In this document: one piece after another, positions 5,245 to 41,620 of the stretch
How positions within the stretch are numbered: the stretch's first letter is position 1
Layout: every line of letters begins with the position of its first letter
Source of the DNA: an uncultured Candidatus Saccharibacteria bacterium
Lineage (GTDB): Bacteria; Patescibacteriota; JABMPQ01; JAQVVF01
NCBI GenBank assembly: GCA_964574655.1
Contig: CAZNOH010000001.1
Coordinates: 137,852 to 201,851, forward strand
Direction: 5' to 3'
Length of the DNA: 64,000 bases
Position numbers and translations under genes: made by a program
Notes under the pieces: generated by a model
The model's database searches: none
The model's input: the letters and a program-made list of their open reading frames with translations, nothing else
What the model was told of the DNA's origin: nothing

Positions 5245-5328
5245 AATAATTTTTATCCGCCTTTGTTAAAGCTTCCACCTTCGCTAAAGCTTCGGTGGAC
5301 AAGTCGGCGGACGAGGGAGGTGATAAAT

Positions 5329-5463
5329 ATGATGGATTATAATATGATGAGTGGAGTTAATGGGGGAAATATGATGTTTTTTGCTTGGACTATATATATT
5401 TTGATTATTGTTTTAATTATTTTGGCAATTATAGCGTTGTGGAAATATATAAATAAAAAATAA
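5329..5463 (+). CDS. Small Met-rich membrane peptide (MMDYNMMSGVNGGNMMFF + one transmembrane helix) downstream of the Cu-ATPase; a possible Cu(I)-binding accessory peptide.
   Basis: The supplied ORF 5263..5463 is over-extended through a hairpin element. The real start is probably the ATG at 5329, preceded by the Shine-Dalgarno sequence GAGGGAGG (5313-5320). Confidence 0.35.
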   Translation: MMDYNMMSGVNGGNMMFFAWTIYILIIVLIILAIIALWKYINKK

Positions 5464-5467
5464 AAAT

Positions 5468-5722
5468 ATGATAAATTTAAAACATTTAAGTAAAGTTGTT
5501 GTTTTATGGATGAGCCTTGTTTATACTGTTTGTTACGCAGGAGTGGCAATTTATCCTCCGATTAGAGGATTATTTATGAAATATTCTTTGCATGCTGACA
5601 TGGTTTTTGTTTCTAATTTTTTCAGTATTGGTTATTTTATTTCTGGTTTGATTATTTGGAATGTGGTTGGATTAGCTGGAGCCGGGTTGTTTGCTGTGTT
5701 GTTTAATAAAATTAAAAGTTAG
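5468..5722 (+). CDS. Hypothetical small membrane protein (two or three transmembrane helices).
   Basis: 84-aa ORF with hydrophobic segments, 4 nt after the previous small ORF. Confidence 0.35.
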   Translation: MINLKHLSKVVVLWMSLVYTVCYAGVAIYPPIRGLFMKYSLHADMVFVSNFFSIGYFISGLIIWNVVGLAGAGLFAVLFNKIKS

Positions 5723-5789
5723 ATAAAGAGTAGAAAAAATTATTATCATTTTTTTTGACAAATTTTGTATTTCTGGTAAAATAAACTTG

Positions 5790-6052
5790 TAAATTTTAAA
5801 AACGTTTGAGTCTGGTTATCGCCAGATGATGTTGGTGAAAGAAAGCTTGGAAGTTTCTACCTTGCCTCTGCCTTCGTTACGCTTTGGCAGGCAGGCATGG
5901 CAAGGGTCGAACCTCCGCCATGGGCGGAGTAGAAGTTCTGAGTAATTAGATTCATTCGGGTAAGCCCGTTATAGCTTGAAATAAGTTACCGCCTTCACTC
6001 TTCACTTCGTTCAGAGCTTCGGCGGTTAAAAGAGGTGGTACCGCGAATTATT
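5790..6052 (+). ncRNA. Candidate structured non-coding RNA or hairpin-element cluster. It is a GC-rich stretch with three GC-rich hairpin elements (5868-5895, 5912-5929, 5988-6026) plus other stem-loops, and ends at an intrinsic terminator.
   Basis: There is no ORF. GC content is locally higher than its surroundings. Nested helices include CCTTGCC...GGCAAGG, CTCCGCC-atg-GGCGGAG and CGGG-taag-CCCG. It is preceded by a weak promoter-like TTGACA-N15-TAAAAT (5756-5782). I recognised no RNase P, SRP or tmRNA signature. Confidence 0.25.
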
Positions 6053-6081
6053 CGCCCTCTAAATTTTTTAGGGCGTTTTTT
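6053..6081 (+). terminator. Rho-independent terminator (CGCCCT-loop-AGGGCG + T6).
   Basis: Perfect 6-bp GC stem followed by TTTTTT. Confidence 0.6.
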
Positions 6082-6159
6082 AATGGTAATAAAATGATTA
6101 TTGATGTGCAGACTTTTATAATTAAATAAAAAAACCACGTTAGTGGTTAAGTAAGTGCA

Positions 6160-6393
6160 TTATTTCTTTTGAGGAATGATCTGGAATTGAGAAATGAAAA
6201 GGTTGGAAAAATAGAAACAGAACAAACCGTTGATTAAGCAAAAAATGGTTAAAACTTCCATAATAAGAATATTCGTAGAAAGGAAAATCATGACTATTGC
6301 ATATAGCACAATTGCGAAATGTATTAGAGAAGCTGTTAAAAGAAACATCGTTATTGCGACTATCCAAGGATGTTTTTTGAGTGTGTTTCTCAT
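6160..6393 (-). CDS. Hypothetical small membrane protein (77 aa, two transmembrane helices).
   Basis: Hydrophobic ORF in an otherwise empty region; coding status uncertain. Confidence 0.25.
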   Translation of the reverse strand: MRNTLKKHPWIVAITMFLLTASLIHFAIVLYAIVMIFLSTNILIMEVLTIFCLINGLFCFYFSNLFISQFQIIPQKK

Positions 6394-6549
6394 TTCTCGT
6401 CCCCTTTTTTGTTGAAAGAACTATATAAATTTTAGCATATTAATTAATAATTGTCAATAGAATCGCGAATATGCACAAATTTATCACAAATAGCACTAAT
6501 AGTCTATATGTGAAATTTGTGCAAGATTCGTGCAAATTCGAGAAATTTT

Positions 6550-9500
6550 ATGTTTAAAAAAGTAGATCCAAAACAAGATTTTATAAAATTAGAGCATGAT
6601 GTTCTTGGTTTTTGGAATGAGAACAGAATGTTTTATAAATTGCAGAATAAAAATCATGGCAAAGAGCCTTGGTCTTTTATTGATGGTCCAATTACAGCAA
6701 ATAATCCAATGGGAGTCCATCATGCGTGGGGCAGAACATTGAAAGATGTTTTTCAGCGTTATAAGGCGATGCAAGGATTTGATCAACGATGGCAAAATGG
6801 TTTTGATTGCCAAGGTCTTTGGGTTGAGGTTGAAGTTGAAAAAGATTTGGGATTTAATTCTAAAAAAGAAATTGAAAAATTCGGTTTGGATAATTTTTCT
6901 AAAGCTTGCAAAGAAAGAATTGAAAAATATTCCGAAATTCAGACTGAACAATCAAAAAGACTGGGACAGTGGATGGATTGGAGAAATTCTTATTATACAT
7001 ATACAGATGATAATATTGAGGCAATCTGGACTTTTTTAGAAAAATGCAAAAGAAATGGCTGGCTATACAAGGGATATTCAGTAATGCCTTGGTGTACAAG
7101 ATGCGGGACTGCTTTGTCTCAACATGAATTATCAGATGATGGCTGGAAAGAAGTTGTTCATCAGGCAGTTTATATTAAATTAAAAAGAAAAAGCGAAGAA
7201 GCTGAAATTAATGAATATTTCTTGGTTTGGACAACAACTCCTTGGACATTGCCAGCAAATGTTGCTTTGGCTGTAAATCCAAAAGTAAAATATGTCAGAG
7301 TAATGAAGGACGGCGAGACCTATATCTTAGCTAAGGCTTTAGTTTCGAAAGTTTTGGGTGAAGCAGAAATTGTAGAGGAAGTTGATGGAAAAAGTCTTTT
7401 GGGTCTGCATTATGAAGGACCTTTTGATGAATTGCCTGCACAAACAGGAGTAGATCACAAAGTAATTTCATGGGAAGATGTTTCTGATGCTGAAGGTACT
7501 GGCATTGTTCATATTGCGCCTGGTTGTGGTGAAGAAGATTATCAGCTTTCTAAAACTAATGATTTGAAAATTATTGCTCCAATTGATGAATTTGGCAACT
7601 ACGTTGATGGTTTCGACTGGTTGAACAAAAAAAATGTTCACGGAATTAAGAATGAGATTTTTTCTTCTTTGAAAGAAAAAGGTAATTTTTTGAAAATTGC
7701 TGATATTAAACATCGCTATCCATTTTGCTGGAGATGCAAAGAAGAATTAGTATTTAGAGCTGTTTCAGAATGGTTTATTGATGTTTCTGAAGTCAGAGAG
7801 CCAATGAGGAAGGCTGCAGAAAAAGTTGGTTGGTTGCCTGAATCAGTTGGCAAGAGAATGCAAGATTGGCTTGATAATATGGGAGATTGGGTAATTTCTC
7901 GAAAAAGATATTGGGGTTTGCCATTGCCTTTTTATGAATGTGAATGCGGTGAAGTAACTGCTGTAGAGTCACGAAAAGAGCTTTTAGAATTATCAAATCA
8001 ACAATCAACAAATTTGATATTAGCAAGGCATGGAAGAAGCGAAGGAAATGTTTTAGGAATTACTGATGGAAAAATGCCAGGAACAAATTTAGATTGGAAA
8101 GGCGAGGAAGAAGCCGATCAATTGGCGAAACAGATGAAAGAAAGAGGAGTTGATATTGTTTATACTTCACCTTTCTCTCGTTGTAAAAAAACAGCTGAAA
8201 AAGTGGCTAAATTATGCAATGCAGAATTAGTTGAAGATGAAAGGTTGAGAGAACAGGCTTTTGGTAATTGGAATGATAAGAAAGTTTTTGAAGTTGAAAA
8301 AGAACTTACTGATTTTTATGAGGAAAATGATGATAAAAAGGCTGGTGAGACAGGTGAAAGTATGAAAGAACTTTTTGCAAGATGTCAGGATTTTTATCAT
8401 GAAATTTTGAAAAAGCATAATGGCCAGACTGTTGTTGTAGTTACTCATGATGGAATTTTGGCAAATCTAGAAAAAGTAATTGTGAATAATAAAAAAGTTA
8501 GAAATGTTATGAAAGTTACAGCTCAAAATGCTAAAGCCCATGAAATTAATATTTTAGGGAATGGCCCCAGCCATGAAGGCGGGGCAAGCAAAATTATTCC
8601 TGAATTACATCGTCCTTGGATTGATGAACTAAAAATCATTTGTCCAAAATGTAAAAAGGAAGTATCGAGAATTAAGGATGTTGGTGATTGTTGGTTGGAT
8701 GCTGGAATCGTGCCTTTTTCAACATTAAAATATTTTAGCAATAAAGAATATTGGGCAAAATGGTTTCCTGCTGAATTTGTTTGTGAAATGCGTTCTCAAG
8801 TAAGATTGTGGTTCTATTCAATGCTTTTTATGGCTGTAACGTTGGAAGATGAGACGCCATATAAACAAGTGCTAGCTTATGAAGAAGTAAGAGATGAAAA
8901 AGGCAAGCCAATGCATAAGTCTTCTGGCAATGCGATCTGGTTTGATGAAGCAGCAGAAAAAATGGGAGCTGATGTGATGAGATGGATGTACTGTGTCCAA
9001 AATCCAGCTTACAACTTAAGATTTGGCTATAGATCCGCAGAAGCAATTAGACGCAAATTAATTTTGTTATGGAACGTTTATTCTTTCTTTGTGTTATATG
9101 CGAACATTGATAATTTTAAGCCTGTTGAAAATAATAAATTAGTACTGAACAATAAACTTGATCAGTGGATTATTTCAGCTTTGAATGCATTGATTGCTGA
9201 ATGCAATAAAGAAATGGATAGATTTAATGCTCAACGCGTAATGGAAAAATGCGAGAAGTTTTTGGATGATTTAGCAAATTGGTATGTAAGAAGATCAAGA
9301 AGGAGATTCTGGAAGAGTGAAAATGATCAGGATAAGAATCAAGCCTATCAAACGTTGTATACTGTTTTGACAAATTTTGTGAAATTAATTGCACCTGTTG
9401 TGCCATTTTTGTCTGAAGAAATGTATCAGAACTTGGAGCGTCAGAGCGTCGGAGCTTCGGAGATCGGAAGCGTCCACTTGTGTGATTATCCGAAGGCTGA

Positions 9501-10092
9501 TGTAAACTTGATTGATGAAAAGTTGAATATGGAGATGGATTTGGTGAGAACAATTGCGAAATTAGGTTTAGCTGCACGTGCAAAAGCACAAATGAAAGCA
9601 CGACAGCCGTTAGCTAAGTTGAAAGTTAAAAGTTTAAAGTTAAAAGTTACGGACGATTTAATTGCTATTTTAAAAGACGAATTAAATGTGAAAGTTATTG
9701 AATTTGTGGAAAAGATTGGTTTTGAGGTTGAAGAAAAGAAAAACAAGAAAAAGTATATTTCTAAAGAAAAAGGCTTTGAAGTTGAAGGTGATGGTAATGT
9801 TGTTATTGCTTTACAGACTGAATTAACTGAAGAACTAGAATTAGAAGGTATGGCTCGTGAAGTTGTCCGACAGATTCAATCAATGCGTAAAGAAGCTGAT
9901 TATCAGATTGCAGACCGTATTAAAGTTTGTTTTGAATTAGGTGAAAAAGGTAAAAAAGTTTGCCATCAGTTTGGTGATTATATTAAAAAAGAAACTTTGG
10001 CAACTGAATTAGAAGAAGGTAAAAAAGAAGTTGATTTGGGCAAAGAGGCGAAATTAGGCAAGGAAGAAGGATGGATTGGAGTGAAGAAATAG
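6550..10092 (+). CDS. ileS: Isoleucyl-tRNA synthetase (type 2, Thermus-like) with a histidine-phosphatase/phosphoglycerate-mutase-like domain of about 170 aa inserted between the two zinc-knuckle Cys pairs (CECG ... CPKC).
   Basis: Motifs seen are WTTTPWTLPAN (CP1 editing), WVISRKRYWGLPLPF, PMHKSSGN (the KMSKS equivalent), and a HIGH region GVHHAWG that aligns to T. thermophilus GLPHVGHA. The insert has LARHGRSEGN (the RHG catalytic motif) ... VVVTHDGIL (the second catalytic His). The likely start is the ATG at 6550 (MFKKVDPKQ); the supplied ORF begins at 6517. Confidence 0.9.
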   Translation: MFKKVDPKQDFIKLEHDVLGFWNENRMFYKLQNKNHGKEPWSFIDGPITANNPMGVHHAWGRTLKDVFQRYKAMQGFDQRWQNGFDCQGLWVEVEVEKDLGFNSKKEIEKFGLDNFSKACKERIEKYSEIQTEQSKRLGQWMDWRNSYYTYTDDNIEAIWTFLEKCKRNGWLYKGYSVMPWCTRCGTALSQHELSDDGWKEVVHQAVYIKLKRKSEEAEINEYFLVWTTTPWTLPANVALAVNPKVKYVRVMKDGETYILAKALVSKVLGEAEIVEEVDGKSLLGLHYEGPFDELPAQTGVDHKVISWEDVSDAEGTGIVHIAPGCGEEDYQLSKTNDLKIIAPIDEFGNYVDGFDWLNKKNVHGIKNEIFSSLKEKGNFLKIADIKHRYPFCWRCKEELVFRAVSEWFIDVSEVREPMRKAAEKVGWLPESVGKRMQDWLDNMGDWVISRKRYWGLPLPFYECECGEVTAVESRKELLELSNQQSTNLILARHGRSEGNVLGITDGKMPGTNLDWKGEEEADQLAKQMKERGVDIVYTSPFSRCKKTAEKVAKLCNAELVEDERLREQAFGNWNDKKVFEVEKELTDFYEENDDKKAGETGESMKELFARCQDFYHEILKKHNGQTVVVVTHDGILANLEKVIVNNKKVRNVMKVTAQNAKAHEINILGNGPSHEGGASKIIPELHRPWIDELKIICPKCKKEVSRIKDVGDCWLDAGIVPFSTLKYFSNKEYWAKWFPAEFVCEMRSQVRLWFYSMLFMAVTLEDETPYKQVLAYEEVRDEKGKPMHKSSGNAIWFDEAAEKMGADVMRWMYCVQNPAYNLRFGYRSAEAIRRKLILLWNVYSFFVLYANIDNFKPVENNKLVLNNKLDQWIISALNALIAECNKEMDRFNAQRVMEKCEKFLDDLANWYVRRSRRRFWKSENDQDKNQAYQTLYTVLTNFVKLIAPVVPFLSEEMYQNLERQSVGASEIGSVHLCDYPKADVNLIDEKLNMEMDLVRTIAKLGLAARAKAQMKARQPLAKLKVKSLKLKVTDDLIAILKDELNVKVIEFVEKIGFEVEEKKNKKKYISKEKGFEVEGDGNVVIALQTELTEELELEGMAREVVRQIQSMRKEADYQIADRIKVCFELGEKGKKVCHQFGDYIKKETLATELEEGKKEVDLGKEAKLGKEEGWIGVKK

Positions 10093-10120
10093 TTGAACAA
10101 ATAGTTTGAACAGAAAAAAG

Positions 10121-10145
10121 ATAGGCGAAAATGCCTATTTTTTTT
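10121..10145 (+). terminator. ileS intrinsic terminator (ATAGGC-gaaaat-GCCTAT + T7).
   Basis: Perfect 6-bp stem followed by a T-run. Confidence 0.65.
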
Positions 10146-10172
10146 GACATTTTGTGTTTAAAAAGGTAAAAT
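10144..10172 (+). promoter_or_regulatory. Canonical sigma70-type promoter: TTGACA, 17-nt spacer, TAAAAT. A strong Shine-Dalgarno sequence AGGAGGAG follows upstream of the 10259 ATG.
   Basis: I read it directly; spacer length counted as 17 nt. Confidence 0.55.
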
Positions 10173-10258
10173 ATTATTATAAAGGTATGGATTGTTCGTT
10201 AAAATTTAATTGACTATCCAATCGATTTCTTTTCATCCCCAAGAACCAGGAGGAGAAG

Positions 10259-12889
10259 ATGCGAACAGAAAGATGGTTGATGATAGGTTTAATGTCTGTT
10301 TCTTTGATTTTTTGCACTTGCGTTATTGAACAAGCTGAAGTAGAAAATGAAGAGGTTGCAAATCGAGATATTGGCGGCAACAGTCCTAGTTTTAAGATTC
10401 CTCTCCCGAAAGGATTTGAATGGAAAGTCACGCAATCTTGGGGCGAGCATGCTGAACAATGTGATATTGATTATCCTCCAGCGTCTGGAGAAGATTATTT
10501 TGTAGAATCTTCTCATAATACTAGTTCTTATTGCGAATATGGTTGGGATTTTAGTTTACCAGGTTCAACTGATAGCGGAAAACCAGTTTTAGCTTCTGGC
10601 TTGGGCACTCTTAAATATATTGGGGATGGGACAAGTTCTGGACAATGCAATGGTTGGGGATACTGTGCGATCATTGATCATCAATACAAAAAAACTATTG
10701 ATGGCTTAGAGCATAATGTTTGTTCACGTTACGCACATATGATTATTGATTCGGGATCTCAGTTAGAAATAGGTCAGGATATTTGTCAGGGATTAAAAAT
10801 AGGAGAAATCGGAGATACTGATTCACCTGGAGCGTATCATCTTCATTTTCAGTTTGAAGATTGTGATAATCGGAAGCCATTGCGGATGGGATTTACAGAT
10901 GGAAATGGAGTTCCTCGATGTGAAGAATATTTGACGCTAACCAATGATGAAGTAGAAAGCTGTGGTGATTCTCCTGACGATGTTTTTGGTGATGCTGAAT
11001 TGCCAGAAGGTGGCTGGGTGAATGCAGGTTGTGGATCTTTGCCGGATTGTCCGTTAATTCCAAATTGTAATAGAGAAAAAGGAACTCATCTATTTTCTGA
11101 TTACATGATTGTTGATGATGTATTATTAGCTGCTGGATATCTTTATGGCGAATGTGCTTTGGATGGTAAAGCTGATGGCGGGTTACATCCAAATGATGAC
11201 ATTTCACGAGCAGAAACTTTAAAAGTTGCATTGAATTTGTTTGGTTTGGCGAGTGACAATTGTGGTGATTCAGAGAGCTTTACAGATGTTAGTCCTGATG
11301 ATTGGTTTTATGATTTGGTGAATTGTGCCCAGAAGTATGGAATCATTGAAAGCGTGGGCGGATCTTTTTATCCCAGTCATGCAGCGACTTTTGCTGAAGC
11401 GGCAAAAGTTGTTGTCGAAGCAGCGAATCAGGCTGATGTTATCGAAATAAAAAATGCGCATGAGTTAGGATTTAGCGGTTCGTCAGATTCTCATTGGTCA
11501 TTGAATTATTTTGCCACTCTTTATTATTATGGAGGAATCGATTTGGGTTATTTGCCAACTGCAATTTTGGAGCTACCAGTCAAGAGGAAGGATTTTTTTA
11601 TTATGGCAGCTTCTCTTTCGCCTTGTTTTTGCGGAAATGTTAATTGTAGTTCTGGCTGTGTTTGTGATCAGAAAGTTAGCGCTTGTGTTGATCCTGATGA
11701 TGTTTCGGATGATACAGGTGGTGGAGATGATGTAGAAGAAGAACTTGAGGAAAAAGAATTTGATTTGCAAATTGATTGCTTTGTTGATGTTGAGCATACA
11801 AGATGTGAAGATTCTGGTACAATTTTGTATGTAAAATGCGATTTGGAAAATAATGGCGATGAGGTTGTGAAGCTAAATAATCTTGTAATGTTTATGTCTA
11901 GTTCCTCTGAACAATGTCAAGTAACTGATCAAGATTTACATAGCGGTGTTGGAACTCAACATGTTGAGTCAGGAGAAATTAGAGATCTCAATGGACATTT
12001 TGAAATAACTTGTACAGATCAACCAAGAGATAGTGAATTTGAAGTCTATTTTGATTTGTATGAAAGGATTGATGGGGAAGTGACACAATACGAAGATATT
12101 TTGACAGCTGAAATATTTGTTGCTGATGAACCTTTTGAATTGTGCGAGGAAGATACGTGTACTCTATTGACGTGCCGTGTTATGGGATTTAGTTGCGGGT
12201 CTTACAGTGATAATTGCGGAGGCATAATAAGTTGTGGGAATTGTGAGCAAGACTTTGACTGCGTGGATGGCAGATGTCAGCAACGAGAAGTTTGTGAACC
12301 AGTGATCTGTCAAATATTAGGATATCAATGTGGAAATTACAACAACAATTGTGGAGGTATGATTAATTGTGGAAATTGTGGAAATGGTTTTTCTTGTCAA
12401 AATGGTGCATGCGTTGGAATACAAGAAGGTGTTTTTGATCAAGACCAATGCAATTTGTGTCCTTATACAACACCATGCGATGAAAATAATCATTGTCAGG
12501 CGGAAGGGTGGTACGATGATTGGGTATGTGAAAATGGATATGTCACAACTATTGGATCTCCAGGAGGCAGAGTAGAAATTGAAACTTCAGGCGGTCAACA
12601 AAGATTTTACCAATTTGATTTAAATCCGGCGATGCTATTTACTTTTAGTTGTGATGAATTGCCAGTGGCAATTTGGATTGAAACTGGTCCAGAATCGTTA
12701 AGTGTTGAAATTATGGATCCAAGTTTGCCATATTTTTCTTTTATTTCCCCACCATGTGAATGTGGTGTTTCAATTTATCCAAGGGGGATTGAAATGACTG
12801 CAAGAGGTATTTCTCTTTTGGTCAATAATGATGCAGAACATTGGTTGATTCGAGTGCCGATGAAAGATTATCGATCTTTTTTTGAGTAA
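10259..12889 (+). CDS. Secreted cell-surface protein. It has a signal peptide, an M23 (LytM-type) metallopeptidase domain (HxxxD ... GAYHLHFQFED), SLH-like domain(s) (FTDVSPDDWFYDLVNCAQKYGIIESVGGSFYPSHAATFAEAAKVV), an acidic linker, and C-terminal Cys-rich tandem repeats (CGSYSDNCGGIISCGNCEQDFDCVDGRCQ and CGNYNNNCGGMINCGNCGNGFSCQNGAC).
   Basis: 876-aa ORF with a hydrophobic N-terminus. The M23 HLH motif and the SLH consensus (F.DV...W...GI..G.F.P...T.AEAAK) were recognised by eye. Confidence 0.7.
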   Translation: MRTERWLMIGLMSVSLIFCTCVIEQAEVENEEVANRDIGGNSPSFKIPLPKGFEWKVTQSWGEHAEQCDIDYPPASGEDYFVESSHNTSSYCEYGWDFSLPGSTDSGKPVLASGLGTLKYIGDGTSSGQCNGWGYCAIIDHQYKKTIDGLEHNVCSRYAHMIIDSGSQLEIGQDICQGLKIGEIGDTDSPGAYHLHFQFEDCDNRKPLRMGFTDGNGVPRCEEYLTLTNDEVESCGDSPDDVFGDAELPEGGWVNAGCGSLPDCPLIPNCNREKGTHLFSDYMIVDDVLLAAGYLYGECALDGKADGGLHPNDDISRAETLKVALNLFGLASDNCGDSESFTDVSPDDWFYDLVNCAQKYGIIESVGGSFYPSHAATFAEAAKVVVEAANQADVIEIKNAHELGFSGSSDSHWSLNYFATLYYYGGIDLGYLPTAILELPVKRKDFFIMAASLSPCFCGNVNCSSGCVCDQKVSACVDPDDVSDDTGGGDDVEEELEEKEFDLQIDCFVDVEHTRCEDSGTILYVKCDLENNGDEVVKLNNLVMFMSSSSEQCQVTDQDLHSGVGTQHVESGEIRDLNGHFEITCTDQPRDSEFEVYFDLYERIDGEVTQYEDILTAEIFVADEPFELCEEDTCTLLTCRVMGFSCGSYSDNCGGIISCGNCEQDFDCVDGRCQQREVCEPVICQILGYQCGNYNNNCGGMINCGNCGNGFSCQNGACVGIQEGVFDQDQCNLCPYTTPCDENNHCQAEGWYDDWVCENGYVTTIGSPGGRVEIETSGGQQRFYQFDLNPAMLFTFSCDELPVAIWIETGPESLSVEIMDPSLPYFSFISPPCECGVSIYPRGIEMTARGISLLVNNDAEHWLIRVPMKDYRSFFE

Positions 12890-12912
12890 GCGATTTTATA
12901 TCGCTTTTTTTA
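12889..12912 (+). terminator. Intrinsic terminator (AGCGAT-tttat-ATCGCT + T7).
   Basis: Perfect 6-bp stem followed by a T-run, immediately after the stop codon. Confidence 0.6.
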
Positions 12913-13071
12913 TTTGTAAAATAATGATAAATCAATGCGAACAAATAATTTGAACAGAAAAAGATAGGCAAATATTCGTCTATCTTTTGTTTTGTATTGA
13001 CTTTTTATAGAAATAAGGTAGAGTAATTAGTCTTGGATTTTCAGGATGCCTAGAAGGAGGAGGAGAAGACA

Positions 13072-13503
13072 ATGAAAAGATCTCCATGCAGTTGGTGTTG
13101 TGGTGAAAGTTCTTTAAACATTGGAGCGGGATCATTTCGTGATTTTGACTTTGATTATTCTTATGGTCTTCCGATTTGTGGTGGCTGTGGTGGTTTAGGA
13201 ATTCAAGTTGATGATGAGGAGTTCAGGCGACTTACGAAAGAGATTATTAGATTGCGATTTGAGTATTGCCCTACTGGTGATATGCACTTGTGTCCAGACT
13301 TGCCTTTTATTGTTAGATTGCAAAAATATAAGGCTTTGCAAGCTGTTGTAGTTGAAATTTTTGGGAAATTTGCTGAATCTGGTAATGAATGTTATGCAAA
13401 AGATCTTATTGGTAGTGGCTTTGCTTGGGGGATTGAGCAATTAGAGAAGGCGTCTCAAGTCTATTGTGAGGTCTTTGAACGTGAACCGGAGAATGAATCA
13501 TGA
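13072..13503 (+). CDS. Hypothetical Cys-rich protein (143 aa; CSWCCGE, CGGCGG at the N-terminus), preceded by the strong Shine-Dalgarno sequence AAGGAGGAGGAGAAG.
   Basis: The ORF has an extended Shine-Dalgarno site. Its upstream about 140 bp is a near-duplicate of the cassette upstream of 10259. Confidence 0.5.
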   Translation: MKRSPCSWCCGESSLNIGAGSFRDFDFDYSYGLPICGGCGGLGIQVDDEEFRRLTKEIIRLRFEYCPTGDMHLCPDLPFIVRLQKYKALQAVVVEIFGKFAESGNECYAKDLIGSGFAWGIEQLEKASQVYCEVFEREPENES

Positions 13504-13521
13504 GAAGTTAAAGCAGTTCGG

Positions 13522-13884
13522 TTGGCTTGGTTGGAGTTTTGGAAAGGAAATTTTGAAGATGGTAAGAGATTGTTTTTGGCTGTTTTAAGAGATTTTCCTG
13601 AATCGAGTATTGTTAGCTGTGATTATGCTAACTATCTGTTGCTTTTCGAACGAAATCATGTCGAGGCTCTGAAATATTTTGAACAAGCAGTGAGTCAAAA
13701 ACCGAGAAAAGCTGCTCATTATTATAATTTGGCAAAATTGTTGTTCAAAAAAGAACAGTTTTCAAGAATTGATGAATTGCTTGGTGAAGCTTTAGTATGT
13801 GAAGATTCTTCTTCTTTGAATGATTGCTTTGAGGAAATTACATTGATGAGGGAAAAAGCAAGGTCGCGAGCACATTTGTCTTAG
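13522..13884 (+). CDS. Hypothetical protein (120 aa, helical/TPR-like). It is in the same frame as the 13072 ORF, separated from it only by a TGA at 13501-13503, and has no ATG start (TTG).
   Basis: 13072 and 13522 are both in frame 1. Translating across the TGA gives ...ENES*EVKAVRLAWLEFW... Confidence 0.35.
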   Translation: MAWLEFWKGNFEDGKRLFLAVLRDFPESSIVSCDYANYLLLFERNHVEALKYFEQAVSQKPRKAAHYYNLAKLLFKKEQFSRIDELLGEALVCEDSSSLNDCFEEITLMREKARSRAHLS

Positions 13885-13885
13885 T

Positions 13886-13912
13886 AACTATCCATATGGA
13901 TAGTTTTTTTAT
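13886..13912 (+). terminator. Intrinsic terminator (20-nt perfect palindrome AACTATCCATATGGATAGTT + T7).
   Basis: I read it directly. Confidence 0.65.
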
Positions 13913-13924
13913 ACCTATGCTATA

Positions 13925-14707
13925 ATGTTTTTGTCTATGGCAACATATAAAACAAAAGGTATTATTATTAAAAGAGTGAATTATAAAGAAGCAGATAAAA
14001 TCCTGACTATTTTTACGGCGAATATGGGCAAGATTACAGCTTTGGCAAAAGGAGTTAGAAAGACAACTTCGAAATTAGGCGGACATTTGGAATTGTTTTG
14101 TAGCGTGGATTTGATTTTGGCTGAAGGAAAAGCTTTTGATATTGTGACGTCTGTAGAAAAAAATTGTCATTTTAAAAACTTATGTTTTGATTTAGATAGA
14201 ACTTCTCATGCTTATTATGTTTGTGAATTGGTTGATAAATTTACTCATGAAGATTACAAAGATACAAGGTTATATAATTTATTGTTTTTAGCTTTGGATT
14301 CGATAAATCAAGAAATATCTTTGGATAAAAAACTAGATTTGATTTTGAGCGGTTTTAAAATCAAGCTTTTAAAAATTCTTGGTTTTTTGCCTGATTTAAA
14401 AAAATGTGTTCATTGTGGCAAGAGGGATCAAGAAAATTATTTCAGCTCTTTTTTGGGTGGTTTGATTTGTAAGAGTTGCTTTGATATGGATCGTGAGAGT
14501 TTGAAAATTTCTTTGGAATGTTTAAAGATCTTAAATTTTTTGGAAGATAATAATTTTGAAAATATAAAGAGACTGAAAATTGATGATAAGTTTAGTAAAG
14601 AAGTGGAAAGAGTGTTGGATCAATTTATTAGATTCAATCTAGATAGGGAATGTAAAGCTAAGAGTTTGTTATGCGATGTAAAAAGGCTATGTTTGACAAC
14701 AAATTAA
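13925..14707 (+). CDS. recO: DNA repair protein RecO (N-terminal OB fold plus C-terminal Cys4 zinc finger CVHCGK...CKSC).
   Basis: MATYKTKGIIIKRVNYKEADKILTIF...GGHLELF is RecO-like. The start may be the ATG at 13940. Confidence 0.75.
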   Translation: MFLSMATYKTKGIIIKRVNYKEADKILTIFTANMGKITALAKGVRKTTSKLGGHLELFCSVDLILAEGKAFDIVTSVEKNCHFKNLCFDLDRTSHAYYVCELVDKFTHEDYKDTRLYNLLFLALDSINQEISLDKKLDLILSGFKIKLLKILGFLPDLKKCVHCGKRDQENYFSSFLGGLICKSCFDMDRESLKISLECLKILNFLEDNNFENIKRLKIDDKFSKEVERVLDQFIRFNLDRECKAKSLLCDVKRLCLTTN

Positions 14708-19458: not shown

Positions 19459-19533
19459 GTTAGAAAGTTTAAAGTTATCCGCCTTCGTCCTGCTGGACTT
19501 TGGCGGACAGGTAAAGTTTATAAAGTATCTAAG

Positions 19534-25313: not shown

Positions 25314-25413
25314 TTTCTCTAATGCTATTTCGAATACGACTAATAAAATCTCTAATACAGTATTAGAGACAGAATTAGAGAAAAGTTTATTAGAATTTAA
25401 TTAAAAAAATAAT

Positions 25414-27663: not shown

Positions 27664-30600
27664 ATGAAATATGACTTTAAGAAAATTGAACGCAAGTGGC
27701 AGTTAAAATGGGATAAGGAAAAGCTTTATCAAGTTGATGTAAAAAATTCTGCAAAGCCTTTTTATAATTTGATGATGTTTCCATACCCATCAGCAGAAGG
27801 TTTGCATGTTGGAAATATGTATGCTTTTACTGGTTCTGATATTTATGGAAGGTATCAAAGATTAAAAGGTAATGATGTTTTTGAGCCAATTGGTTTGGAT
27901 GGTTTTGGTATTCATTCAGAAAATTTTGCAATTAAAAATAAGATTCATCCAGCAAAAATGGCTTTAAAAACGCAAAAAAGATTTTATGAACAATTGCACA
28001 TGATTGGAAATGCGTATGACTGGCCAAAAACTTTAGAAACTTATGATCCAGAATATTATAAATGGACGCAATGGCTATTTTTGCAAATGTACAAAAAAGG
28101 ATTGGCTTATAAAAAGAAGGCAGCGGTGAATTGGTGTCCTTCATGTATGACTGTTTTGTCTGATGAACAAGTTATAAAAAAGTCAAAAGTCAAAAGTCAA
28201 AAGTCAAAAGTTCAAGTAAAAAATCAAAAGGAATCGAACGAACAAATCGATGTTTGCGAACGTTGTGGGACAGAAGTTATCAAGAAAGAAATGAGCCAAT
28301 GGTTTTTTAAGATTACTGATTATGCTGAAAAATTATTAAAGAATATTGATAAAATAGATTGGACAGAAAAGACAAAATTAGCGCAAAAAAATTGGATTGG
28401 AAGAAGCGAAGGCATAGAAATTAATTATCTAATAAACAGTAAATGCAATTTTGTTTTGCTACATGGCTATACTGGTAGTTCGAAGGATGATTTTTTTCCT
28501 TGGCTAAAAGAAAAATTAGAAAAGCAAGGATGTGACGTTTTTGCGCCAGATTTGCCGAATACAAAAGATCCAAATGAAGATGAGCAGGTTGATTTTGTTT
28601 TAAAAAATGCAAAGTTTGATGAAAATACTATTTTGCTAGGTCATTCATTAGGTGCTGTTGTTGCAATGAAAGTTATGGAAAAATTAGATAATAAAATTGC
28701 GGGTTTGGTTTTGGTTGGTGGTTTTGTCGAGCCAGAATTTAAAGATCATTCAAGATCTTTTACTGATAAATTCAATTGGAAATTTGATTTCGTGAAGATA
28801 AAAAATAGTGCAGATATCATAAATGTTATTAGTGATATAAATGATCATATCATTCCTTTAGAACAAGGTAAGTTATTGAGAGATAAATTGAGTGCAAATT
28901 TGACTGAAACTGTTGCTGAAAAAAATCATTTCAACAATGTCGAAGCCAAAAGTGTTTGGGAAAGTATCTTTCCTGAAATTAAAGTTTTTACAACTAGACC
29001 TGATACAAATTTTGGAGCAACATTTGTTGTTTTGACGCCCGAAAATAAAATCTTAAGCTCTATAACAACTAGTGATCATAAAAGAGAAGTTGATGATTAT
29101 GTTAAAAAATCATTAGAAAAAGGTGAACAAAACAGAATTGAAGAGGGACGAGAAAAAACAGGAGTTTCTACTGGAGCTTATTGTATTAATAGTTTGACAG
29201 GAAAGAAAATGCCGATTTGGGTGTCTGATTTTGTTTTGGGAAATGTAGGTACCGGTGCAGTGGTTGGAGTGCCAGGTCATGATATCAGAGATTTTGAGTT
29301 TGCTAAGAAATTTGAATTGCCAATTATTCGAGTTGTTGTTGGCAAAGATAATGATGTTTCTGAAATTATAGAAGCAAAACAAGTGCAAGAAGAAGAGGGA
29401 AAAATGATTAATTCTGATTTTTTGAATGGTTTAGATATTCATGACGCGACTAAAAAAATTATGGATTATTTGGAAGAGAAAGGCTGGGGTAAAAAAGTTG
29501 TGAATTACAAATTACGTGATTGGTGTATTTCTAGACAAAGATTTTGGGGACCGCCAATTCCAATTGTTTATTGTGATAATTGCAAAAAAAACATTGAAGA
29601 AAAATCTTTTGAATTAAGATTTCGTGATAAAAATAGTTTTGCTGATTTAAAAAGTGGTTTAAAGACAGTTGAATCAAGAGCTTTAAATCCAGAAGAAAAA
29701 GACAGATATTTTGGAAATTTGAAAATTGGTGATTATATTAAGGCTTTGTCAAAGATAACCGGAGAAAAATTATATTTTGAAATTACGAAGATTTATAATT
29801 TTAAAAATCTTAATGAATTATTTGAAGAAAAAGAATTATTGACAAAGATATTGCCGAACAAAACAATTAATTCAGTAAATGATTTAGAAAAATTATATGT
29901 TTTTAATGATGAATATTTGGCAAAAATAAATGAGAATGGTTTAATTGCTTGGGAAATTAAAAATGTTGAGCCTGGAGTTTTAGCTGTTCCTGAAAAAGAT
30001 TTGCCAGTGATGTTGCCAAAGACTGATGATTACTTGCCTGACGGAACTGATCGATCTCCTCTTGCTCGAAATTCCGAATTTGTTAATACAAAATGTCCAA
30101 AGTGTGGAGGAGATGCAAAAAGAGAAACTGATGTGTCAGATACATTTTTGGATTCATCTTGGTATTTTTTGAGATATCCAAGTGTTGATATAAAAGATCA
30201 GCCTTTTGATAAAGATATTACAAAAAAATGGTTGCCAGTTGATATGTATATTGGCGGACATGAACATGCTGTACTTCATTTGCTTTATACAAGATTTGTA
30301 ACAATGGTTTTGCATGATTTAGGGATGATAGATTTTGAAGAGCCTTTTAAAAAATTCAGAGCGCATGGTTTGATTATTAAAGATGGTGCAAAGATGTCAA
30401 AATCAAAAGGCAATGTTGTAAATCCAGATATATATATTGAGAGATATGGTGCTGATGTATTGAGAACATATTTAATGTTTATTGGGCCGTTGAAGCAAGG
30501 TGGTGATTTTCGAGATGAGGGAGTGGTTGGTATAGAAAGGTTTTTTGGTCGCTTATATTATTTAGTTAACGAATTTATAAAGAGTCCCAGCCTAAAGGCT

Positions 30601-31116
30601 GGGCTACAAGATGGATTTGTAATTGAGAGAAATAAACTGATTAAAAAGGCAACTCATGATATTGAGGAATTGGATTATAATACGATCATTGCTTCTTTGA
30701 TGGAATTTTTGAATTTGTTAGATAAAAATAAAGAGAAAGTTGCAAAAATTGATTTGGAAACGTTAATTATTATTTTGTCTTCTTTTGCGCCTCATTTTTG
30801 TGAAGAAATGTGGTCCACCTTCGCCTCAGTTCCTTCGGCTACGGCGGATAAAAGAGATTTGGATAAATATAAGCAATCAGTTTTTAGGCAGAAATGGCCG
30901 GAATTTGATGAAAGTAAAATGAAAGAAGAAAAAGTAAAATTAATTATTCAGGTAAATGGCAAAGTGAGAGATTTCGTGGAAGTCGAGATCGATATCTCTG
31001 AAAGTAAGGCGAGTGAATTAGTACAAAAACGAGAAAAAATTATGAAATTTATTGTTGGAAAAAAGATCAAGAAAATGATATTTGTAAAAGGCAGATTGAT
31101 AAATATCGTGTTATAA
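27664..31116 (+). CDS. leuS: Leucyl-tRNA synthetase with two inserted domains. An RBBP9/YdeN-type serine hydrolase (about 190 aa; LLHGYTGSS...GHSLG...DHI) sits at the CP1 entry between NWIGRSEG and TTRPDT. An ASCH-like domain (about 130 aa; GLKTVESR, i.e. GxKxxExR) sits at the leucyl-specific-domain position. The HIGH motif reads HVGN.
   Basis: PYPSAEGLHVGN, NWIGRSEGIEINY...VFTTRPDTNFGATFVVL, KMSKSKGN. It is 1150 aa against about 860 for E. coli LeuRS. There is a heptanucleotide repeat (AAAAGTC)x4 at 28186-28220. GC-rich hairpin elements lie in frame at 30586-30603 and 30814-30854. Confidence 0.9.
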   Translation: MKYDFKKIERKWQLKWDKEKLYQVDVKNSAKPFYNLMMFPYPSAEGLHVGNMYAFTGSDIYGRYQRLKGNDVFEPIGLDGFGIHSENFAIKNKIHPAKMALKTQKRFYEQLHMIGNAYDWPKTLETYDPEYYKWTQWLFLQMYKKGLAYKKKAAVNWCPSCMTVLSDEQVIKKSKVKSQKSKVQVKNQKESNEQIDVCERCGTEVIKKEMSQWFFKITDYAEKLLKNIDKIDWTEKTKLAQKNWIGRSEGIEINYLINSKCNFVLLHGYTGSSKDDFFPWLKEKLEKQGCDVFAPDLPNTKDPNEDEQVDFVLKNAKFDENTILLGHSLGAVVAMKVMEKLDNKIAGLVLVGGFVEPEFKDHSRSFTDKFNWKFDFVKIKNSADIINVISDINDHIIPLEQGKLLRDKLSANLTETVAEKNHFNNVEAKSVWESIFPEIKVFTTRPDTNFGATFVVLTPENKILSSITTSDHKREVDDYVKKSLEKGEQNRIEEGREKTGVSTGAYCINSLTGKKMPIWVSDFVLGNVGTGAVVGVPGHDIRDFEFAKKFELPIIRVVVGKDNDVSEIIEAKQVQEEEGKMINSDFLNGLDIHDATKKIMDYLEEKGWGKKVVNYKLRDWCISRQRFWGPPIPIVYCDNCKKNIEEKSFELRFRDKNSFADLKSGLKTVESRALNPEEKDRYFGNLKIGDYIKALSKITGEKLYFEITKIYNFKNLNELFEEKELLTKILPNKTINSVNDLEKLYVFNDEYLAKINENGLIAWEIKNVEPGVLAVPEKDLPVMLPKTDDYLPDGTDRSPLARNSEFVNTKCPKCGGDAKRETDVSDTFLDSSWYFLRYPSVDIKDQPFDKDITKKWLPVDMYIGGHEHAVLHLLYTRFVTMVLHDLGMIDFEEPFKKFRAHGLIIKDGAKMSKSKGNVVNPDIYIERYGADVLRTYLMFIGPLKQGGDFRDEGVVGIERFFGRLYYLVNEFIKSPSLKAGLQDGFVIERNKLIKKATHDIEELDYNTIIASLMEFLNLLDKNKEKVAKIDLETLIIILSSFAPHFCEEMWSTFASVPSATADKRDLDKYKQSVFRQKWPEFDESKMKEEKVKLIIQVNGKVRDFVEVEIDISESKASELVQKREKIMKFIVGKKIKKMIFVKGRLINIVL

Positions 31117-31196
31117 CACACTAATGTGACGCTAATAACACTAATTAACACTAATAAAAAATCCGCCTTCGTTCTGCTGAACTTCGGCGGACAAAG

Positions 31197-35777: not shown

Positions 35778-35824
35778 TTTCTCTAATATAATCTCTAATA
35801 CGTCGAATACGATCTCTAATAATA

Positions 35825-35850
35825 AAAAAACCTCGGATGAGGTTGTTAGA
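35825..35850. terminator. Bidirectional intrinsic terminator (AAAAAAACCTC-ggat-GAGGTT) between glmS and the minus-strand gene at 35846.
   Basis: 5-6-bp GC stem with an A-run upstream, so it reads as a T-run on the minus strand. Confidence 0.5.
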
Positions 35851-36343
35851 AGGAACGTTTTAATATTTCTCTTCTGAGAATGTTTGCTAGTCTGTCATAA
35901 TGTCGAAATTTGGCTAGCACTTCTGCATGTTGTTTTACTTTTTGAAAAAGATGCGTGTATGTTCTTGTTTCTATTGTATATGTTACATCGAGAACATTTT
36001 GCAAACTTCTTGGAATTATCATCTGGAATTCTTCGGGTCTATCTTTAGAGAGCATTTCAAGGAGTTTATTTTTGTCATGATCATAGTCTGTTTGACGAAT
36101 TAAAGCCTGGCATTGTTCGAGAATTTCAAGGCTTTGTTGGTTGATTGCTCGGCCTTTTAAGAAAAGTTCGTTTAGTAATGCTTTGATTATTTCGTTAGTA
36201 ACAGGATTAATTTTAGGTAATTGGTATTTAAGGTATTTAGCAATTCTTTTGACAACGAATTCCGGAATTCTTTCTATGAAAATGAGCAAGAATGCGAGAC
36301 CAACAAGACATCCAATTAGAAATCCGATGATGATGTCTTTCAT
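35846..36343 (-). CDS. Hypothetical membrane-anchored protein (N-terminal transmembrane helix, 165 aa).
   Basis: ORF with a hydrophobic N-terminus. Confidence 0.4.
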   Translation of the reverse strand: MKDIIIGFLIGCLVGLAFLLIFIERIPEFVVKRIAKYLKYQLPKINPVTNEIIKALLNELFLKGRAINQQSLEILEQCQALIRQTDYDHDKNKLLEMLSKDRPEEFQMIIPRSLQNVLDVTYTIETRTYTHLFQKVKQHAEVLAKFRHYDRLANILRREILKRSF

Positions 36344-41560: not shown

Positions 41561-41620
41561 ATATTCGGAAATTAAGATATTAAATATTATCCACCTTCGC
41601 TAAAGCTTCGGTGGACAAAG

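Follow-up and report, generated by a model that had tools for sequence, protein, structure and literature searches.

The window analysed here comprises 64,000 nucleotides (nt) of contig CAZNOH010000001.1 (positions 137,852 to 201,851) from an uncultured Candidatus Saccharibacteria bacterium, the genome of which has a GC content of 33%. Between the core genes ileS and recO, the window carries three further genes, all of them, like the other features of this locus, on the + strand. The ileS gene (6517–10092, stop codon TAG at 10090–10092) encodes an IleRS with an inserted His_Phos_1 domain according to Pfam, with orthologues of 85–88% identity. After a spacer of 166 nt, it is followed by the gene for a secreted M23 peptidase/SLH/Cys-rich-repeat protein of 876 amino acids (aa) (10259–12889; Pfam) and, after a second spacer of 182 nt, by the gene for a near-orphan 143-aa protein with CxxC...CxxC motifs (13072–13503). 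A gene for a 120-aa TPR protein (13522–13884; Pfam) is probably co-transcribed with the 143-aa gene. A terminator-like hairpin with a T-run behind it (13888–13910), recognized by inspection of the sequence as CTATCC-ATAT-GGATAG, closes the series in front of the extended -10 element (TGCTATAAT) and start codon of recO (13918–13939). An earlier note on this DNA had singled out the two spacers as a duplicated, mobile or recombining expression module. Our analysis makes it probable that they contain paralogous copies of a local terminator/promoter module, which brackets an accessory gene at an insertion hot spot, and not a mobile or genome-wide regulatory cassette.

The repeat shared by the two spacers is real and somewhat longer than the nearly identical 27-nt box first described. 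It reads GAACAAATA[G/A]TTTGAACAG-A5/6-GATAGGC at 10095–10126 and 12939–12969. Over these 31 nt, the copies differ by a single mismatch and a single-base indel, and the box together with the 5' arm of the following hairpin is identical at 30 of 31 positions. The two copies form a direct repeat, 2,844 bp apart, on either side of the M23/SLH gene. Local alignment of the two spacers scored 61, as opposed to 20.3±2.9 (maximum 37) for 1,000 dinucleotide shuffles, and this pair ranked first when the 31 intergenic regions of the window were compared with one another. In a genome of 33% GC, AT-rich spacers that each hold a terminator, a promoter and a Shine-Dalgarno (SD) site could come to resemble each other by chance, and the similarity of the SD and promoter parts is explicable by function alone. 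Such a chance resemblance is, however, refuted by a score 14 standard deviations above the shuffles, by an expected chance count of 0.00 for the 31-mer and by the occurrence of the box at the orthologous position in two other genomes, so that we give it next to no credence. Significant homology covers only about 65 nt (10095–10158 versus 12939–13005) and ends near the -35 element. The common origin proposed for the whole of the approximately 150-bp upstream regions therefore holds for the box, the terminator and the -35 region; 3' of the terminators only the SD patch aligns, with a score equalled by 7 of 500 shuffles, and the 5' untranslated regions of the two genes are not detectably paralogous.

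Close relatives were retrieved via IleRS, namely L035, L036 and L037 (88% identity), L039 and L040 (85%) and L038 (70%). Copy 1 of the box (TTGAACAAATAGTTTGAAC, 10093–10111) lies directly 3' of the ileS stop codon and is orthologous to L035 10004–10022 and L039 2626–2644, whereas copy 2 (GAACAAATAATTTGAAC, 12939–12955), which is no longer 3' of ileS, is identical with the box in both relatives. There the box reads YTGAACAAATAATTTGAAC and stands 2 nt 3' of the ileS stop, always just 5' of a terminator, whichever gene follows. This position is found in L035/36/37 and L039/40; in L035 and L039, CTGAACAAATAATTTGAAC begins directly after the stop, as in copy 1, with the shared GAAC core 2 nt past it. 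The more distant L038 has no box after its ileS. Common to all copies is the core GAAC-AAATAATTT-GAAC with the inner palindrome CAAAT-A-ATTTG. The tandem TTGAACA half-sites noted earlier are present in copy 1 alone, since copy 2 has CGAACA...TTGAACA and the relatives have CTGAACA...TTGAAC(A/G). Of the 17 box positions, 16 are the same in all three genomes, while the pairwise third-codon identity of ileS is only 0.64–0.71 and the sequence immediately 3' of the box is unalignable. The box is therefore under purifying selection. Because the relatives carry the same box after ileS in front of differing genes, the box is, judged by its conservation, an ancestral and selected element of the ileS 3' flank.

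In each spacer, the box is followed by a hairpin terminator, as had been proposed: a stable stem-loop and a T-run downstream of a gene end are present at 10114–10145 and 12959–12988. Terminator 1 ('type 1') folds at -15.9 kcal/mol (z -5.2); its 5' arm AAAAAGATAGGC is common to copy 2, and its loop and 3' arm are L035-like. Terminator 2 ('type 2') folds at -14.6 kcal/mol (z -3.4) and is homologous to the ileS terminator of L039, from which it differs by paired arm changes (GATAG/CTATC versus GACAG/CTGTC) that preserve the pairing of the stem. The terminators of the relatives fold at -15.4 and -16.2 kcal/mol, so that strong folds occur in all four copies from differing sequences. RNAalifold returned no consensus on the four copies since indels shift the hairpins out of register, and single-sequence folds were used instead. 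The M23 gene has a separate terminator-like hairpin of its own upstream of copy 2 (12888–12906), which is weak (-7.8 kcal/mol, z -1.75).

The TTGACA and TTGACT -35 elements described earlier were likewise found, each as part of a promoter-like pair. P1, TTGACA-17-TAAAAT at 10144–10172, matches 11 of 12 hexamer positions and lies within sequence orthologous to the ileS-recO spacer of L035; P2, TTGACT-16-TAGAGT at 12997–13024, matches 9 of 12. Both arrangements resemble a known kind of spacer, in which an intrinsic (Rho-independent) terminator with its stem-loop and T-run after a gene end is joined to a sigma-70-type promoter, the T-run merging into the TTGAC(A/T) -35 element that is followed by a -10-like hexamer. 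They differ from it in having a selected 17–19-nt box before the hairpin and in the duplication of the whole unit 2.8 kb apart.

How the box is placed relative to these elements bears on what it might do. The distance from box to terminator is 2–6 nt in all four copies, though the hairpin sequences vary, whereas the distance from box to -35 element takes values of 32, 41 and 43 nt and, in L035, exceeds 55 nt. Being fixed in position near the terminator, and not near the promoter or the gene that follows, the box more likely has a function connected with the 3' end of ileS or with termination than one as a shared operator for Cys-rich genes. In an operator reading, the GAAC-N9-GAAC box would bind a transcription factor that co-regulates the M23 and 143-aa genes through promoters 30–40 nt downstream. 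The box is indeed selected and intact in copy 2 away from ileS, it consists of direct GAAC repeats around an inner palindrome, and the gaps to the -35 element (32 and 41–43 nt) are about one helical turn apart. Nevertheless, a terminator stands between box and promoter, the L035 promoter is more than 55 nt away, and no other copy exists on either strand in 64 kb; the box of the relatives precedes recO (L035) or an unrelated 110-aa membrane open reading frame (ORF) (L039), and M23 orthologues elsewhere are without it. Neither the fixed operator geometry nor the dedication of the box to secreted or Cys-rich genes could thus be upheld, and we regard a common operator as improbable. The perfect conservation of the box in copy 2 keeps a role as operator or recombination site alive. 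A conserved antisense small ORF across the box was discarded since the reading frames differ between copies, as was a promoter within the box, because TTGAAC-17-AATAAT, found by eye, occurs in L039 only and is not conserved. Among known motifs, LexA GAAC repeats, the Cheo box and CodY, PurR, Fur and IHF sites do not seem to fit the box.

The steady spacing to the terminator also speaks for an element at the RNA level. The box could be a conserved single-stranded segment 5' of a terminator, serving as a protein or RNase site in the 3' untranslated region or as the seed of a small RNA derived from it. In that case, copy 2 would stand alone as a paralogue, and a promoter-like site at 12895–12922 might drive it. 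Small-RNA seeds are usually arranged in this manner, with a variable hairpin behind a conserved stretch, and the 2–6-nt spacing persists here while the hairpin sequences change; moreover, the promoter-like TTTATA-16-TAAAAT would start transcription about 8–10 nt before box 2. The layout is compatible with this reading, but Rfam 15 gave no match to the region, whether its gathering threshold was applied or E was relaxed to 1, the window contains no significant complementary targets, and the inner palindrome cannot form a stable RNA hairpin. We consider an RNA element unlikely, if slightly less so than an operator.

Unlike the box and terminator, the SD sites do not seem to belong to the duplicated module. 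A 12-nt SD stretch, AGGAGGAGAAGA, is identical at 10248 and 13058; it constitutes the site 5' of the M23 gene (10248–10259) and lies within the longer stretch AGGAGGAGGAGAAGA 5' of the 143-aa gene (13055–13069). The strong SD sites emphasized earlier are therefore present, but probably not as a part of the module. SD-led genes are a minority in the window, where about 7 of 48 genes show GGAGG, typically with a purine run after it, and about 41 of 48 are without any SD. SD-led genes in the relatives have the same GGAGG-plus-purine pattern, and the distant M23 orthologues are SD-led too (AAGGAGAAGG, AAGGAGG). Since these orthologues and other SD-led genes of the clade share that pattern, the 12-nt identity looks convergent, being better explained by convergence within the SD-led minority than by homology of a cassette. 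As a separate observation, hypothetical or accessory proteins are overrepresented among the products of the few SD-led genes (10259, 13072, 35846–36343 on the - strand, and 53704). The extended -10 element of recO lies only about 11 nt before the ATG, which suggests a leaderless or near-leaderless recO mRNA.

The gene content between ileS and recO differs among the genomes. The window has the order ileS, M23, 143-aa, TPR, recO, and L035 has only a 111-nt spacer (10004–10114) between ileS and recO, L039 the 110-aa membrane ORF, which is unrelated to the 143-aa protein, and L038 a 175-nt spacer (13562–13736). None of the M23, 143-aa and TPR genes, nor any remnant of them, was found in the L035, L039 and L038 loci. 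The breakpoints are clean: L035 9971–10094 corresponds to window 10060–10178, and L035 10096–10150 corresponds to window 13918–13972, where L035 homology resumes at the recO -10 element. The window thus equals the L035 arrangement plus a clean accessory block of 3,739 bp (10179–13917), missing from this nearest relative and made up of the M23 gene with its leader, copy 2, the genes for the 143-aa and TPR proteins and the final terminator. Because of this variation, the ileS-recO gap is, on the alignments, a small hot spot with differing cargo in each genome examined. Hot spots for the insertion of accessory genes between core genes are known from Escherichia coli pangenomes. The present gap resembles them in its conserved flanks ileS and recO, its genome-specific cargo and its clean breakpoints, but differs in its tiny scale (0 to 3.7 kb, 0–3 genes), the lack of mobile-element genes and the internal duplicate of the terminator module of the flank. 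A foreign origin of the block could not be argued from base composition, as its GC content of 0.37–0.40 exceeds the 0.30–0.36 of its neighbours, yet other core genes reach 0.40, which makes the measure uninformative.

The only part of the block homologous to any relative is copy 2, which matches the ileS-downstream region of L039 with 79.7% identity over 69 nt (E 3.6e-10). Past the box, the loop, 3' arm and ATTTTGTGTTTA spacer of copy 1 are like those of L035 (z 4.4–4.6), whereas copy 2 is similar to L039 (z 6.8). Similarity is lower in the cross comparisons, being not significant for copy 1 versus L039 (z 0.8) and borderline for copy 2 versus L035 (z 2.3, 18 of 500 shuffles). There are hence two paralogous module types, one in common with L035 and the other with L039. 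This pattern is compatible with two histories. The duplication may have preceded the split of the genomes, with one copy then lost in each relative, the M23 unit having been deleted from box to box in L039 and the whole block having disappeared in L035. Alternatively, modules may have been exchanged between lineages along with cargo.

These comparisons suggest the following model. Both spacer regions would be copies of a single 'punctuation' module, an intergenic unit that belonged ancestrally to the 3' flank of ileS in a small Peregrinibacteria-like clade of the candidate phyla radiation (CPR). The module would consist of the 17–19-nt box 2 nt past the ileS stop, an intrinsic terminator after another 2–6 nt and, from the promoter that follows, the T-run/-35 region, with both copies in or at the edge of the 3.74-kb accessory block inserted between ileS and recO. 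Each copy most likely ends the upstream transcript, that of ileS or that of the M23 gene, after which the promoter and strong SD would restart expression. Through recombination between the near-identical boxes, the M23 unit could also be gained or lost, and the arrangement in L039, with ileS, box, type-2 terminator, promoter and SD, would be the product expected from box-by-box recombination in the window, the cargo ORF aside. In this respect, the locus is comparable to segments bounded by direct repeats that arise or disappear through homologous or homology-facilitated illegitimate recombination, as in Campbell-type integration and its reverse: a near-identical 31-nt repeat brackets one gene unit, and one relative shows the gene order that deletion from repeat to repeat would leave. 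It departs from them in that no circular intermediate, donor or deletion variant was observed and in that the cargo behind the surviving module of L039 differs.

A stronger version makes the 31-nt repeat itself a landing pad or att-like core, that is, the crossover site for cassettes entering and leaving the ileS-recO gap, and the module a recombining expression platform. The near-identical direct repeat with sharply diverging flanks that brackets exactly one gene unit speaks for it, as do the left edge of copy 2, which is unrelated to ileS, the differing cargo of the gap and the occurrence in L039 of the box, a type-2 terminator, a promoter and the same AAGGAGGAGGAG before a different ORF. 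However, the sequence to the right of both cores, themselves identical at 30 of 31 positions, is homologous to the chromosomal spacers of L035 or L039, which marks it as duplicated resident DNA and not as arms of an element. No box is present at the recO side of the block. No recombinase, integrase or transposase was found among the checked neighbours, about 9 kb upstream and about 6 kb downstream (DsbD/HMA, P-type ATPase, ileS, recO, TPM, TGT, an FAD enzyme and a class II aminoacyl-tRNA synthetase), where the small ORFs in the gap at 5245–6516 were listed and not family-searched. All same-sample contigs carry the M23-box 2 junction, with no deletion variant among them, and no copy was found in viral or other collections. 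We therefore find a landing pad of this kind doubtful. A more specific form, in which the box-terminator-promoter(-SD) unit by ileS is a lineage-specific landing pad and expression platform without an element-encoded recombinase, seems to us more doubtful still. If it were true, the M23 hydrolase, the 143-aa CxxC protein and the 110-aa membrane protein of L039 would have been swapped behind the module via the 31-nt box, providing an integron-like function by other means in a reduced CPR genome.

Searches beyond the locus did not turn up a dispersed element. No further box copies were found in the 64-kb window or the loci of the relatives with patterns allowing up to 3 mismatches, with GAAC-N7–11-GAAC or with a four-copy nhmmer profile, and each relative contig holds one copy. 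A 20-mer scan of 185,579 species genomes gave 17 single matches in unrelated taxa, attributable to chance only, and a 17-mer scan of IMG/VR gave 22 matches, all with unrelated flanks and thus without a sign of viral origin. Among 19 matches of a 19-mer scan in JGI metagenomes, the only real one was L067 (identical with L040), the orthologous ileS-linked copy. The wider search suggested by the earlier note hence left only the two copies in the window, to which the collections add nothing but the orthologous ileS-linked copy. 'Recombining' remains a fair description of the module, as its repeats bracket a gene in a region of gain and loss, but 'mobile' in the sense of dispersed does not, with two adjacent copies in 64 kb.

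Comparison with other classes of repeats led to the same end, in that membership in integrons, att cores, MITE-like elements and regulons each fails on at least one defining feature. Integron cassette arrays likewise have serial single-gene units at a fixed chromosomal point with a short repeated element between them, but neither an intI tyrosine recombinase nor attI was found among the checked neighbours, and instead of an attC imperfect inverted repeat 3' of promoterless cassettes, the repeat here is a direct box with a terminator 5' of each gene, followed by a promoter-like site. As for MITE-like elements, the two copies in 64 kb are adjacent and not scattered, and there are neither terminal inverted repeats nor a target-site duplication: no inverted arms bound the unit, and the only match near the ends of the block is a 6-nt AGGTAT/ATACCT, read from the sequence and at chance level. 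REP, BOX and Correia-type repeats are similar as short conserved sequences by hairpins in 3' flanks; they differ from the present copies, which are only two and adjacent, lack terminal inverted repeats and in the relatives are specific to the locus after ileS. A regulon is contradicted by the absence of other copies, the variable distance to the -35 element and the differing downstream genes.

We thus favour local paralogy of the module at an insertion hot spot, and several observations weigh against it. Promoter-like matches in the region are not commoner than in shuffles (14 sites versus 11.9 expected), and the expression side of the model, the roles of the terminators and promoters in transcription, is read from sequence. 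The copy scan covered 64 kb of a contig of at least 654 kb, and more copies may exist elsewhere. The two copies in the window are identical at 30 of 31 positions in box and 5' arm, whereas the 5' arm of L039 differs at 2–3 positions; this identity could reflect gene conversion, a recent event or an att-like core and not simple old paralogy. In addition, the box of copy 2 is perfect though no longer 3' of ileS, which fits an ileS-independent function as an operator or RNA element. Finally, with three genomes, an insertion in the window and deletions in the relatives would account for the difference equally.

The M23/SLH protein has 81 homologues, and those from named taxa belong to Peregrinibacteria, Gracilibacteria or Patescibacteria. 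Its best orthologue is 42% identical, and the orthologues lie near leuS and a CHASE2 cyclase gene, not ileS. In the M23/SLH loci L013, L014 and L016 of more distant relatives, the surroundings of the gene are conserved, with leuS upstream at a distance of a few genes and a CHASE2-guanylate cyclase gene in convergent orientation on the downstream side, and the spacer upstream of the M23 gene is long (260–340 nt) and partly conserved; the M23 gene of the window stands outside that context. The deposited M23 protein (P0009) has 865 aa and starts 11 codons downstream (M12), but the longer 876-aa form is supported by the strong SD 6 nt before the ATG at 10259. Its leader also contains an 8-codon upstream ORF at 10188–10214 (ATG GAT TGT TCG TTA AAA TTT AAT TGA; MDCSLKFN). 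The 143-aa protein has one homologue family (40% identity) in a pth/methyltransferase context, at a locus with neither box nor SD; the CxxC...CxxC motifs are conserved in this only homologue. It has no signal peptide, and no relatedness was found between it and the M23 protein. Among defence, phage and NCBIfam labels, neither the 143-aa protein nor the L039 ORF had a match, the TPR protein had only sub-threshold TPR-type NCBIfam matches, and the M23 protein had weak endolysin-like ones.

Other elements of the window were noted alongside. The histidine-phosphatase (His_Phos_1) domain of IleRS is inserted in the catalytic core at aa 500–683 and also occurs in the relatives (P0090–92) and in the Peregrinibacteria protein P0119; in LeuRS (27664–31116), an alpha/beta-hydrolase (Ser_hydrolase) domain is inserted in the class I catalytic core at aa 263–435. 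Upstream of ileS, a sub-threshold match to a T-box leader (5711–6062, + strand; 49 bits versus a gathering threshold of 93, E 1e-8) lies in the 1.27-kb gap at 5245–6516 and ends about 450 nt before the ileS ORF, whereas the T-box motif of L035, GGTGGTACCGCG, is much nearer ileS. In L035, the P-type ATPase gene upstream of ileS has the opposite orientation. Palindromic hairpins rich in GC, (A)TCCRCCTTCG...CTTYGGYGGACA(AAG), form a family with copies at 5274–5302, 19477–19509, 31161–31193 and 41590–41618, with a looser match at 30814; all four named copies lie just 3' of a + strand gene, at least three of them are then followed by a separate terminator-like hairpin, and the family is a REP-like element in this genome of 33% GC. 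Two 44-nt intergenic stretches directly after stop codons (25314–25357 and 35778–35821) have TTTCTCTAAT...ATCTCTAATA in common, with internal CTCTAATA-like repeats.

The finding is real and largely explained, and it reveals no new regulatory system and no new mobile element. It defines a short, lineage-specific intergenic element (YTGAACAAATAATTTGAAC), conserved at the level of coding sequence right after ileS. It also illustrates clearly, on a small scale, how accessory genes come and go between two core genes in a very reduced CPR genome, with terminator/promoter 'punctuation' copied along with them. One of these accessory genes encodes a secreted peptidoglycan hydrolase, which may matter for an episymbiotic lifestyle.

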